Shown piece after piece: positions 21,706-25,915 of a DNA stretch of 64,000 bases. The position numbers were made by a program, and so were the translations under genes. Origin of the DNA: an uncultured delta proteobacterium (lineage in GTDB: Bacteria > Myxococcota_A > UBA9160 > SMWR01). The notes beneath the pieces were generated by a model that saw nothing but the letters and a program-made list of their open reading frames with translations, ran no database searches and was not told where the DNA came from. How positions within the stretch are numbered: the stretch's first letter is position 1; each line of letters opens with the position of its first letter. The stretch is from contig CAWHTE010000011.1 of assembly GCA_963832165.1 (NCBI GenBank), positions 608,001-672,000 on the forward strand, read 5' to 3'.

Positions 21706-22072
21706 GGGGGCGATCGGTTTCGACGGGTGGTCGAAAGCGGGCGCTGCGTGCCGAGGACGTCATCTCCCTCGTTAATCCGGTGGCAAGTTGGTAGCTATAA
21801 CTGCCGACGCAAACTACGCACTCGCTGCCTAGCTAATCCCTAGCGACAGCGACGCCCGTCCGCGACGCCTTCTAGCGGGTTGCGGGCGTCATTAGAGGGC
21901 TGGCCCCCGGCCGCTGACAGACCGCATCCGGGGGCGAGAAACAAGTCTGTCTAGGTGGGAGCTTCTCCAGGTTTCCGCGACTGGCCCCACCGAAAATGAG
22001 CGGAAGCTACGCACGTAGACGCGCTGGCCGGACATCATGCGGACGCGGGTTCGATTCCCGCCGCCTCCACCA
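21706..22072 (+). ncRNA. ssrA: tmRNA; tag peptide (A)ADANYALAA at 21803-21832
   Basis: 5' GGGGGCGATCGGTTTCGACGGG; 3' T-arm GCGGGTTCGATTCCCGC and CGCCTCCACCA with G3.U70; ATAACT resume context then GCC GAC GCA AAC TAC GCA CTC GCT GCC TAG. Confidence 0.97.
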
Positions 22073-22211
22073 AAATCCACAGTAGTTTCAGTGATTTGCA
22101 GACGCGAAATAGCGCCTGCACACCGCGCGCACACCGGGCCCTCGTCGGGCTCCTCTCCTGCACCCAGCGCGAGATCGTTGTTTCTGGGCGACTCTGAGCG
22201 CCGGTGAATTC

Positions 22212-22490
22212 ATGCGCGCGCTGACCGAGGACACCCGAGCGCTGATCGAGCAGTTGCGGTCGCTGCCCAAAACGCAGGTTCGGAAGTCGTCCGCGCGCGC
22301 ACCGCCGCCGGGGTGGAGCTGCTCGGAAAGATCGCCGACGCCGCCGAGCTGGCAGCGCTTCCCGAGATCTTGTCGTTCGTACTGGAGAAGGACGCGCTGT
22401 TCGCACAGGCAGCTTCGCACAGGCAGCTTCGCACAGGCAGCGGCGCTGCTCGCGCTCTCGGTGCGCGGCGAAGCGGAGGCCTCTGACTAA
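22212..22490 (+). pseudogene. Degraded helical-protein remnant containing a 14-bp triplication
   Basis: Protein-like text switches frame (MRALTEDTRALIEQL... then VELLGKIADAAELAALPEILSFVLEKDALFAQAA). Confidence 0.4.
22400..22441 (+). repeat. Perfect tandem repeat, 3 x 14 bp
   Basis: TTCGCACAGGCAGC at 22400, 22414 and 22428. Confidence 0.92.
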
Positions 22491-23440
22491 CCTCGTGCCG
22501 TGTAGCACGGCACGAATAGCTCAGCGCGTGCCCCGAGAAACGCCTCGATGATCTCCTTGCTGCGGTGCCGCGCCTCGAACTTCCCCAGCCCGATGAGCGA
22601 GTCGATGCCGCGCACATCGTCGAGCTTGTACTGTCCGCGCGTCACGGTGGGATCGACGCGACACACGTTCTCCGAGCCGAGCAGGTTCTGCGCTAGTCCG
22701 AGCGCACACCTGGACTGGCCGACGAACATCATCTCCATGAGCGGCGTCCCCCATCCGAGCGCACCCGTGAGTCCACGCGCTCGGAAGAAGCTTCGCCGCA
22801 TTGGACTCGACGTGCAGCTGATGCTCAGAACCTTGATCGCGTCGAGCGGCCATCGCAATCGGTGGCCGACGGCCTCGACACAGCCTAGCGCAACGGGGTT
22901 GTTGGCCCAGAGGCCACCGTCGAGAAGCTCGGGCCCGCGCTCTGCGCGGGCCGCGGGGAAGAACGTCGGCGCGGCGCTGGTCGCAAGCGCGACCTCGACG
23001 GCACACTCCCGCCAATCCGTGTGGAAGTCGGTGTGATGCGGCGTCTTGTAGATGTAGACCTCTCCCGACTCCAGAACCTGTGATGGGATCAGGAGGCGCG
23101 TGCTCGCCTCGCAGAGCTTGCGGTCGCCTAGCTTCTCCTCCAGCACGCTGCGGAGACCAGCGCTGTCGTACTTCGTCCGGAGAGCCCGTCGCGCACTTCG
23201 GAGCCACTGATTGCCGTGGAAGATCCGCGCACCCTCGCGCTCGTAGAGCGTGGTCAGCTCGCGTGCGGACATGCCCATCGCGAGGCCGATCGCAATGATG
23301 CCGCCCGTCGAGGTGCCCGTGATCAGGTCGAAGTACTCGCCGATCTTGCCCTCGACGTGATCCTCAAGCTCCGCGAGGAACGCCGCGGCGAACACGCCCT
23401 TGATCCCGCCGCCGTCGATCGCAAGGATCTTCCTCACCAC
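22487..23440 (-). CDS. CBASS patatin-like phospholipase effector (CapV/CapE-like)
   Basis: DGGGIKG, GTSTG nucleophile, SAAPTFF, DGGLWANNP; start overlaps the E2 stop; same operon as the CD-NTase. Confidence 0.88.
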   Translation of the reverse strand: MVRKILAIDGGGIKGVFAAAFLAELEDHVEGKIGEYFDLITGTSTGGIIAIGLAMGMSARELTTLYEREGARIFHGNQWLRSARRALRTKYDSAGLRSVLEEKLGDRKLCEASTRLLIPSQVLESGEVYIYKTPHHTDFHTDWRECAVEVALATSAAPTFFPAARAERGPELLDGGLWANNPVALGCVEAVGHRLRWPLDAIKVLSISCTSSPMRRSFFRARGLTGALGWGTPLMEMMFVGQSRCALGLAQNLLGSENVCRVDPTVTRGQYKLDDVRGIDSLIGLGKFEARHRSKEIIEAFLGARAELFVPCYTARG

Positions 23441-23865
23441 AGCCTCCGGCGCCGGCGCGATCTGATGCGCGGATGACTACCGCCCCCGGCCCACGTTCCG
23501 GTGGCGTGCCACACCTCGTAGAAGTACAGCCATTCCATCGCCCACGGCACGATGGTGACGGACAGCCGTAGATGCGGGCCCCACTCTCCCCTCCGTGGCT
23601 GATACAGGCACAATCGGAGCCTAGGGTAGACGTGCGGCACGGGCGTTCCGTCGTCGAGCGGGCGCAGCTCGGGATCTTCGACCGTCACCTCAGGCGCTGT
23701 TCCCAGTCGATAGCGGAGCCGCAACAGGTAGCGGTCCGTGATCTCCGTCGGCTGAACGATGGCCTGCGCGTCGAGTTCCTCGCGGCGAAGACCTCCGTGG
23801 AATCCAATCTGCCGGAGATACTGGAGCTGGATCGCGGCGGTGAGCCTTAGTGGTCCCCTACTCAT
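23434..23865 (-). CDS. Stand-alone prokaryotic E2-fold protein (CBASS type II-short Cap2/E2)
   Basis: PHVY...LCLY...EW...TIVPWAMEWLYFYEVW..TG.W.GGG.H pattern with His/Cys; start overlaps the CD-NTase stop. Confidence 0.82.
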   Translation of the reverse strand: MSRGPLRLTAAIQLQYLRQIGFHGGLRREELDAQAIVQPTEITDRYLLRLRYRLGTAPEVTVEDPELRPLDDGTPVPHVYPRLRLCLYQPRRGEWGPHLRLSVTIVPWAMEWLYFYEVWHATGTWAGGGSHPRIRSRRRRRLW

Positions 23866-24994
23866 CGTCGCCGCCGTGGAACGTGTGGGGCGGGACGATC
23901 GTGCCGCCGATGGTGGCGGAGGTCGTCAGGCTCCGACCGGTGGTGCGAACCTGGCCTGCGCGACGCTGCTGATCGAAGCGCTGGGCGACCGACAGCCGTG
24001 CCTCGTGCACGACACGCTCACCGAAGAGCGCTTCCAACGCACGGTCGAGACTGGGGCCCGTGAGCGTCGCTAGCGCGCGGAGACGGTCGCGGAACTCGAT
24101 CATCCAGCCTACTGCGATCGCGTAGTCGGCGGGCTTCTCGCGCCACTTCTCGCTGAACTCCTCCAGCTGGTTCGTCGGGTTGCGCACGACGAGCTGCTCC
24201 CCGCGAGCCTCGGCGCTCTCGATCTCGTAGACGATCTGCTCCATTACCGTCAGGAGCCCCTCGTACAGCGTCGCCGCACCGAGGTAGTTCCGCGCGGCGA
24301 GCGTCGTGATCACGACCGAACGAGGCGCAGCCTCGTGCCCGTCGAAGTGCACGTCGCGCGCGCGCTTGATCAGCTGGACGATGCGCTTCAGCAAAGCCTT
24401 CAGGTGCGCGGGATCGTTGCTCGGAAGCGGAGCCTGCTTGAGAGCCACGTACCGCTTGCGCACCAGAGTGTCGATGGCGCACTGGCCATCGAACCAGACC
24501 GCGTACCCCTCCGGATCGCTGTTCGTGTAGCCGCGCAACTTGCGGTCCGGCACGAGGATGCTCGTGGCGCTCGTCTGCGGGTTCGGGTCCAGGATCGCGA
24601 AGAGGAGATCGAGGTGGAAGTCGGCGTAGTTCAGCCGCACGCATCGGTTCATCTTCTCGATGATCGGGCCGAAGAACGCGTCCCGCGCGAGCGTGTTCAG
24701 GCCCCAGTTGTACAGCTGCTGCGCGGTGATGTGCAGCACGACGCCGCGCAGCACGATCACGATGTCGAGATCGAACTCACCGCCACCGCGAGGCCGGACC
24801 GTGGTATGAATCCGCATCGAGCCCTGCGGACCGATCGCGAGCCATACACCGGCTGGTGTGTTCGACTCCAGGTATCTGCCGACGTGTTTGTAGGCGCTGA
24901 CGGCCTTCTCGTACCGGGTTGCGTCGAGCTGCAGCTTGACCGTGATCTCGGAAAGAAGGTCGCTCAGCGCGCTCGCGCTGTTGTACTCGATCAC
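23858..24994 (-). CDS. CBASS cyclic-oligonucleotide synthase (CD-NTase/SMODS, clade G-like); ORF extends to 25126, GTG 24994 preferred
   Basis: PQGSMRIHTTVRP..GEFDLD (GS, DxD), FHLD third Asp, SDPEGYAVWF, LKRIVQLIKRARD, RSVVITTLAA, NPTN..EEFSEKW, C-terminal PHTFHG-GDDE. Confidence 0.92.
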   Translation of the reverse strand: MIEYNSASALSDLLSEITVKLQLDATRYEKAVSAYKHVGRYLESNTPAGVWLAIGPQGSMRIHTTVRPRGGGEFDLDIVIVLRGVVLHITAQQLYNWGLNTLARDAFFGPIIEKMNRCVRLNYADFHLDLLFAILDPNPQTSATSILVPDRKLRGYTNSDPEGYAVWFDGQCAIDTLVRKRYVALKQAPLPSNDPAHLKALLKRIVQLIKRARDVHFDGHEAAPRSVVITTLAARNYLGAATLYEGLLTVMEQIVYEIESAEARGEQLVVRNPTNQLEEFSEKWREKPADYAIAVGWMIEFRDRLRALATLTGPSLDRALEALFGERVVHEARLSVAQRFDQQRRAGQVRTTGRSLTTSATIGGTIVPPHTFHGGDDE

Positions 24995-25184
24995 TGGGGG
25001 GTTCTCCGAAGTCGCGATGGCGAGGCGGAGAGCCTGCGCATCGCCGGTGCGCTGTCGTCTCAGGGCGCCCGGGGACGCGCCCCCATCAAGACCTTGAGTA
25101 GCAAATTGTTCAATCCGCCGATCCACTACAGGATCTGGTAGAACTGGGTCTAGATGGCCCCAACCGGTAGATCCCGCGGGGATC

Positions 25185-25506
25185 GAATGGCGTCGGCTCG
25201 CAGCGCACCGCTCTGGAGAGCGGCGGCGTGCGAAGGCTCGCCCATCCGAGCACAGGCATGAGGACTAGCGAGACCGCGGTGAGCGCGATCCCAACCACGC
25301 TTTCGTGGGCTTCTCCCCCGTAGCCCACGAGTCGGCGACCGGCGTCGAGCACGATGTAAACCGCGAGGGGGAGGAGAAGACCCCCGCGATGCGTGCCGCC
25401 CGATGCTCCAGCAGCTCGGCGCGGTCTTCGTCGGCGTTGCCTTTACCTCAGCGCGAAGCCGCCATCCCACCACGGCGGCGCTGGTCGTCTCGACGAACGA
25501 GTCGAT
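25185..25506 (-). pseudogene. Internal fragment of a cation-efflux (CDF-like) membrane protein with several frameshifts
   Basis: IDSFVETTSAAVVGWRL / [12 protein letters not shown] / [22 protein letters not shown] / [11 protein letters not shown], split across frames. Confidence 0.7.
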
Positions 25507-25754
25507 CCTCGGATAGCTGTGACCGCCGACTGGTGTTCTCGGGGAGCAGGGAGCTGCGTCGAGAGGCACAACGCGCGGGGCTCGCCAGGGTGGGACTGCG
25601 GCCAGAATTCCACGATCTCGCCATCGAGCTGTTGCGGGAAAACGGCGCGTTGCTCGACCACGCTCGCCGGCGCGTGCTAGGCGCGCTGCATTCAGTGAGA
25701 AGCCCGCGCGAGGTCGTCACCCCGGCCGTCCGTGCCCTCCTTGGCGCACCCTGA

Positions 25755-25915
25755 CACCCAAGCTCGGCGAGCCGGACGGTCCAGTCGTCGGTCAGGCAGC
25801 CCTCGAGCAATGTGCGGTCGATGCGATCCAACCCGAGCGCATAGCGATACAGCGTGTTGCGAATCTGCTCGCGGTCGTTGAGCTCGCGGAGGAGCGATTC
25901 GGCGCTCTCCGGCAT
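25755..25915 (-). pseudogene. Truncated SnoaL/NTF2-like gene (N-terminus only)
   Basis: LRELNDREQIRNTLYRYALGLDRID...CLTDD, then similarity is lost. Confidence 0.6.

Follow-up and report, generated by a model that had tools for sequence, protein, structure and literature searches.

Background

The closest described relatives of the operon reported here are anti-phage signaling systems based on cyclic oligonucleotides (CBASS) that use either a clade G nucleotidyltransferase of the cGAS/DncV-like kind (CD-NTase, hereafter cyclase) or the phospholipase CapV. Our operon comprises genes for a predicted clade G cyclase, a stand-alone E2 protein and a patatin phospholipase, and it lies in a 64,000-nt stretch of DNA from an uncultured delta proteobacterium (positions 608,001 to 672,000 of contig CAWHTE010000011.1, assembly GCA_963832165.1), which we call the window. 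The SmCdnG-SmE2 pair of Serratia marcescens (PDB 8HSB/8YJY/9KKB; 10.1101/2022.05.25.493364; PMC12948482) resembles the window operon in having a clade G cyclase with a C-terminal glycine and an E2-binding region, a lone E2 with a cysteine and two histidines, neither E1 nor JAB, and a serine/tyrosine active-site lid. The Serratia effector, in contrast, is a 2TM-SAVED protein and not a patatin, the window has no exonuclease gene, the window E2 lacks equivalents of K151 and K159 of SmE2, and in the fold alignment the two cyclases share about 26% identity.

The CapV phospholipases of type II-A CBASS (AbCapV, 8ZR9; PMC12480259) share with the window patatin the fold (template modeling, or TM, score 0.89), the Ser-Asp dyad and the Lys, Asp and Glu ligand contacts; the window protein differs from AbCapV in its partners (a clade G cyclase and a lone E2) and in the changed F147 and R279 positions. 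The CdnG-Cap5 systems (AsCdnG, PMC8568899; VcCdnG, 9WOO, PMC12804361) have the same cyclase clade and most of the same active-site residues, and an AsCap5-like effector occurs in operons related to ours, whereas the window carries a presumed membrane-acting lipase rather than an HNH nuclease and has D160 at the position of a lid asparagine. BdCdnG (PDB 7LJN; clade G10, E2-CBASS), which makes 3'3'-cyclic UMP-GMP (3'3'-cUG), is also an E2-associated clade G enzyme, but the window cyclase belongs to a distant sub-branch and differs in its lid residues. At locus L165, where the cyclase is a close relative of BdCdnG (E = 3e-122), the genes for cyclase, E2 and patatin follow one another as they do in the window. 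The premise of a first-pass annotation of this DNA, that characterized clade G enzymes make 3'2'-cyclic GMP-AMP (3'2'-cGAMP) for Cap5 effectors, was too narrow, as SmCdnG works with a 2TM-SAVED effector and BdCdnG makes 3'3'-cUG.

Results and discussion

Three overlapping genes of a predicted E2-CBASS

Leaving aside which isomer it uses, the locus as a whole is very probably an intact E2-CBASS abortive-infection system (type II short), in which a clade G cyclase, a lone E2 and a CapV-like patatin are predicted from sequence and structural models and coupled in one operon. Its features are as follows.

23858..24994, minus strand: predicted CD-NTase of clade G, a synthase of cyclic dinucleotides, 378 aa; PADLOC Cyclase, E = 3e-79, with PDB sequence and fold matches
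23434..23865, minus strand: predicted stand-alone E2 (E2-CBASS type), 143 aa; PADLOC E2, E = 1e-39, with a match to SmE2
22487..23440, minus strand: predicted CapV-like patatin phospholipase effector, 317 aa; PADLOC phospholipase, E = 4e-99, with NCBIfam CBASS_lipase and a structural model
25004..25007, minus strand: GGAG, a putative ribosome-binding motif that precedes the cyclase's GTG by 9 nt, from reading of the sequence

The genes run from 24994 to 22487, with the E2 start inside the cyclase 3' end (8-nt overlap with the cyclase stop) and with the E2 end and the patatin start sharing 7 nt (GTG at 23440) or 4 nt (GTG at 23437). We favor GTG at 24994 as the cyclase start over an alternative at 25126 because of the GGAG 9 nt upstream, the lengths of homologs and a near-identical contig with ATG at this place (run X1, a single contig at depth 4). 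The junction between the E2 tail and the patatin gene is covered by contigs of two other runs, each with one difference and no gap, which makes an assembly error in the E2 tail unlikely. The first-pass annotation had reported three coupled minus-strand genes with GS/DxD/D and PHTFHG-GDDE motifs in the cyclase, PHVY/LCLY in the E2 and GTSTG/DGG in the patatin, and all were recovered in place; PADLOC, which it had proposed as a check, called the three proteins at the E values listed above, far beyond chance.

In the cyclase, the motifs are QGS at 57-59, D75/D77 and D129, with the C-terminal end PHTFHGGDDE, and G58, S59, D75, D77 and D129 are invariant in 32 aligned rows. Its top three PDB sequence matches are all CdnG enzymes (VcCdnG 9WOO, SmCdnG 8HSB and BdCdnG 7LJN; profile E values from 1e-73 to 8e-51), the next being CdnB at E = 2e-19, and the structural model (predicted local distance difference test, or pLDDT, 88) gives SmCdnG as its best fold match (TM score 0.77) and CdnG enzymes as all of its top six. 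These PDB sequence and fold matches support membership in CD-NTase clade G. S167 and Y172 of SmCdnG (PMC12948482) align to S159 and Y164, and G406, the SmCdnG residue that is joined to E2 (PMC12948482), aligns to G374, which is followed by 4 residues and lies at a position that is glycine in 157 of 158 rows. The C-terminal E2-binding region is modeled as a helix (326-345) and two strands (350-352 and 355-357), with pLDDT only 65-67 over residues 351-370.

The E2 protein, with its PHVY and LCLY motifs, has SmE2 as its sole PDB match (8HSB_B, E = 1e-21). Its H78, C86 and H131 align to H87, C101 and H152, each of which is required for immunity in Serratia (10.1101/2022.05.25.493364), and H78 and C86 are invariant across 49 aligned rows, none of which matched an E2 family in Pfam. 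The patatin contains GGGxK, GTSTG and DGG motifs and the catalytic dyad S44/D174, scores 260.6 bits against NCBIfam CBASS_lipase (cut-off 200), is modeled at pLDDT 93 and is closest by sequence to the PDB entries 9KH6/9KH7/9WN0/9WN1; it is thus predicted to be a catalytically intact CapV-like lipase.

The absence of E1 and JAB genes from the operon, as first annotated, also held. No JAB (PF14464) or ThiF (PF00899) match exists on contig C11, which carries the operon, and since the matches of this genome (89% complete) are confined to contigs C8, C1 and C3, we rejected the idea that an E1 or JAB partner lies concealed. Nor did the genome, at that completeness, contain a second copy of the cyclase, E2 or patatin gene. 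The annotation's classification as type II short with a clade G cyclase agrees with PADLOC and with the PDB sequence and fold matches. All parts are covered by existing PADLOC models and the layout is common; taken by itself, the locus is one more unexceptional representative of a cataloged system.

Patatins are common partners of this cyclase family

Two alignment searches supplied 160 related loci: of 211 matches in genomes we kept the best 80, and of 529 in metagenomes likewise the best 80; a query with the single protein had returned no loci from the genomes. E2 is present in 143 of the 160, and 16 of the 17 loci without it have short flanks. A patatin occurs in 62 loci, every one with an E2, and the named patatin loci span ten phyla. 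Some of the loci are duplicates. Effector classes were counted in those whose flanks reach at least 1.2 kb on the upstream side and at least 1.8 kb on the downstream side, 105 in all: a patatin is found in 47, downstream of E2 in 44 (two of which also have a SAVED gene, in L089 behind a second cyclase) and, in the other 3, upstream of the cyclase, and the remainder carry SAVED alone (43), 2TM-NUDIX (14) or none (1, L049). A search of 151 genomes from the same order turned up the cyclase family in 2, one being the present genome and the other (L181) also carrying all three genes. Among plasmid records of cultured strains the order cyclase-E2-patatin occurs, with a RefSeq name for the lipase (relatives are called 'CBASS cGAMP-activated phospholipase'), and so does the reverse order; a homologous operon lies on a plasmid of Sutcliffiella horikoshii (L162).

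The gene order, which had been thought unusual, is therefore the prevailing one among the full-flank patatin loci, and as both orders occur we rejected it as a novelty. The first-pass annotation had also named, as evidence against an uncharacterised combination of signal and effector, a cyclase clade already paired with patatins. Such pairing is evident in genomes (the 47 of 105 loci, the BdCdnG relative and the RefSeq plasmids), though not in biochemistry: the pairing as such is common, while no paper that we found measures which signal a clade G cyclase makes alongside an E2 and a patatin. Likewise, a literature search of incomplete coverage, by which absence is weakly established, brought up no published work on an operon that combines a clade G cyclase with a lone E2 and a patatin, and no 3'2'-cGAMP-activated phospholipase; published supplementary tables of effectors by type may already list the combination.

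Several related loci have arrangements of their own. L089 (4980-9679) has two CBASS back to back, a cyclase-E2-patatin set followed by another cyclase with an HNH-SAVED gene. The SAVED effector is encoded on the opposite strand, convergent with cyclase-E2, at L021, L027, L034, L035, L044, L064, L126, L134, L138 and L158, and upstream on the opposite strand at three further E2-CBASS loci. A second nucleotidyltransferase-like gene lies beside E2-CBASS at L031, L070, L095 and L143 (downstream of E2) and at L013 (6633-7592). A Bacillus mycoides plasmid (L169, 2997-5397) has a DncV-like nucleotidyltransferase, a 133-aa protein and a patatin, and an E. coli plasmid (L164, 2755-9429) has a 538-aa patatin-containing protein within a TIR-domain gene cluster with no annotated cyclase. 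The patatin-type loci L030, L037, L047 and L067 come immediately after a gene for ribonucleotide reductase, which may mark a hotspot of insertion (the scan covered two of the cluster).

The signal molecule

We made a quick tree of 105 dereplicated cyclases, drawn from 158 by leaving out 31 near-copies and 22 to which no single effector label applied. On this tree the label switches between patatin and SAVED 9-10 times, with at least 6 switches forced by starred branches; a single clade of SAVED-partnered cyclases is rejected (approximately unbiased test, p-AU = 4e-6), and cyclases with different effectors, patatin in one and SAVED in the other, are as much as 70-73% identical. The effector at L003 matches AsCap5 (7RWK) at E = 2e-97, and AsCap5 prefers 3'2'-cGAMP about 10,000-fold (PMC8568899). 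As the effectors are intermingled on one cyclase family, and one of them is close to the 3'2'-specific AsCap5, the most economical interpretation is a single signal shared by interchangeable effectors, among them a 3'2'-cGAMP-activated lipase. The lid and motif columns counted are alike in patatin- and SAVED-partnered cyclases, and a column scan of the two groups, uncorrected for kinship, placed no active-site column among its top 12. Across 59 loci, pairwise identities of patatin and cyclase correlate with each other (Spearman 0.70); since related loci are not independent, nothing is concluded from this.

We thus favor, with a little better than even confidence, 3'2'-cGAMP as the signal and a patatin that is a 3'2'-cGAMP-activated phospholipase; 3'3'-cGAMP is an unlikely alternative and any other molecule a more unlikely one. 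The cyclase keeps 14 of the 17 active-site residues named for VcCdnG, whose product is 3'2'-cGAMP (PMC12804361; mapped on the alignment), and the guanine-binding motif of clade G10, (D/E)xxx(D/E) (PMC10442399), reads E278xxxE282.

Several observations weigh against this choice of isomer. The retained VcCdnG residues choose bases, not linkage, and three of the seventeen have changed (K118 to M115, K119 to N116 and lid N194 to D160), with Asp at the lid position in 8 of 55 patatin-partnered and 2 of 36 SAVED-partnered cyclase rows. The window cyclase is divergent, the nearest locus being 44% identical, and its nearest starred clade has patatin partners only, so that the argument from effector exchange reaches it only indirectly. 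In addition, the CapV ligands that we found in the literature are all 3'3' molecules.

If the same system signaled through ordinary 3'3'-cGAMP, the patatin would be a standard CapV and nothing in the signaling would be new. Its score above the CBASS_lipase cut-off fits this account, as do the response of some Cap5 proteins to 3'3'-cGAMP (PMC8568899) and the SDP lid created by D160, which is seen in DwCdnB too. The ligand contacts speak on both sides. Mutation of any of F147, K149, D159, E207 or R279 abolishes activation of AbCapV by 3'3'-cGAMP (PMC12480259). The window patatin keeps three of the five, with K132, D142 and E189 at K149, D159 and E207, and in 55 rows (the window protein and 54 full-length patatins from the 62 loci) the Lys, the Asp and Glu or Asp at 189 are kept in 55/55. 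The other two positions are I130 for F147 and Q251 for R279, and in the same rows the first is Ile, Val or Leu in 54/55 and the second Arg in 4/55, although AbCapV needs both residues; these contacts, R279 included, are mapped by sequence alignment. Moreover, the four clade G cGAMP makers that we found described, As, Sm, Vc and Ec, all yield the 3'2' isomer (PMC8568899, 10.1101/2022.05.25.493364, PMC12804361, PMC12991175). We therefore regard a 3'3'-cGAMP signal as improbable.

A still less probable account is that the signal is another dinucleotide, such as cUG, or that the patatin accepts several. BdCdnG makes 3'3'-cUG (PMC10442399), its close relative at L165 has an E2 and a patatin downstream, and the three positions at which the window cyclase departs from VcCdnG are acceptor-side or lid positions. 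However, the window enzyme keeps Ser159 like the cGAMP makers, where L165 has Met, and the patatins of L163 and L165 are only 38% identical to the window patatin and sit on a long branch.

An E2 without lysine and a possible mode of action

The window E2 contains no lysine at all. The SmE2-type tail lysine, the isopeptide acceptor, is accordingly absent; it is a feature of SmE2 and not a shown family-defining one. Hence an isopeptide of the G406-K159 type, the E2-linked storage form of Serratia, cannot form on this protein. None of 133 full-length relatives is entirely free of lysine, but in 47 of 131 relatives the tail lacks lysine, and among windows of equal length from the long open reading frames (ORFs) of this genome 268 of 2873 (9.3%) contain none, for which reason we rejected the lysine-free E2 as a strong anomaly and consider it a minor natural variant. 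In Serratia, K159A retains immunity and increases cyclase chains (10.1101/2022.05.25.493364).

By analogy with SmCdnG-SmE2, the E2 would act as a cysteine protease that cuts the cyclase tail behind Gly374 (or Gly375), and the trimmed cyclase would be held on C86 as a thioester, with no need of an E1 or JAB. Given an E2 free of lysine, the system would rest as this thioester or as free enzyme and not as an E2-Lys isopeptide. On infection, again following the Serratia model, the E2 would link cyclases to one another and raise their activity. The trigger may be a phage protease that cuts a disordered loop near residues 181-200, as suggested by a 2026 preprint (PMC12991175) that locates a protease-sensing loop at cyclase residues matching about 187-194; in our model residues 187-194 have pLDDT below 50. 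The window loop reads LPS where EcCdnG has LPE and contains no Glu, and one may speculate that it senses some protease other than that of EcCdnG. The cyclase would then join GTP and ATP into cGAMP, most likely the 3'2' isomer, which would bind between patatin subunits and induce filament formation, and the ensuing hydrolysis of inner-membrane phospholipids would kill or arrest the infected cell.

Position at the edge of an island

Operon G+C is 0.655, against 0.696 for the genome, and the patatin stop lies 414 nt from the 3' end of a transfer-messenger RNA (tmRNA) gene.

21706..22072, plus strand: tmRNA gene, integration site of the island carrying the operon (ARAGORN)
22045..22079, plus strand: left attachment core, with a 33/35-nt copy at C11:741124-741158, 111 kb away and beside a tyrosine integrase gene (blastn)
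22117..22135, plus strand: 19-nt repeat with a second copy at C11:741053-741071 beside the integrase, a possible arm site

The tyrosine integrase (PF00589) is at C11:740432-740968. Given the copy of the tmRNA end 111 kb away and this integrase, an island of about 111 kb occupies the tmRNA 3' end, from window position 22045 to C11:741158, with the operon at its left, tmRNA-proximal edge. Among 8 related loci checked, no tmRNA was found, and one tRNA-Met adjoins L081. The island integrase is split over two frames (C11:739681-741049), broken or misassembled, and the ThiF gene on C3 likewise yields two adjacent matches. Upstream of the operon, 25150-25570 (minus strand) is frameshifted gene debris in which Pfam found nothing and which may resemble a cation-efflux transporter gene. 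An ORF at 25448-25915 (minus strand) matches only the N-terminal 52 positions of the SnoaL_4 domain and is probably a truncated gene.

This setting raises the possibility that the cassette is decaying and silent at the edge of an old island. The debris next to the operon and our failure to find a sigma-70 promoter consensus for it count against an intact system, and the split integrase, the lack of an adjoining regulator and the lysine-free E2 would fit decay as well. Against decay stand three full-length frames with their catalytic residues, near-identical gapless pieces in other runs, the frequency of lysine-free tails in related E2 proteins, and the immunity retained by K159A in Serratia. 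We consider decay very improbable.

Significance

Patatins are at least as common as SAVED effectors in this cyclase family (47 against 45 of the 105 full-flank loci, 2 shared), and part of the interest lies in the unmeasured signal of a common sub-type. We propose tentatively, at rather less than even confidence, that the patatins of clade G E2-CBASS form a widespread unreported class activated by 3'2'-cGAMP, exchangeable with Cap5 nucleases and with a remodeled CapV pocket, of which the window copy, with its lysine-free E2, would be controlled without an E2-linked storage form. This E2 offers a natural test of how general the isopeptide storage step is. The ligands of CBASS phospholipases that we found in print are 3'3'-cGAMP and cyclic UMP-AMP (cUA). 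Should the lipases of this family indeed respond to 3'2'-cGAMP, CBASS phospholipases would have a wider range of known ligands, the pocket changes that distinguish linkage isomers could be put to the test, and one would predict differently which sponges or nucleases of phages can block such systems.

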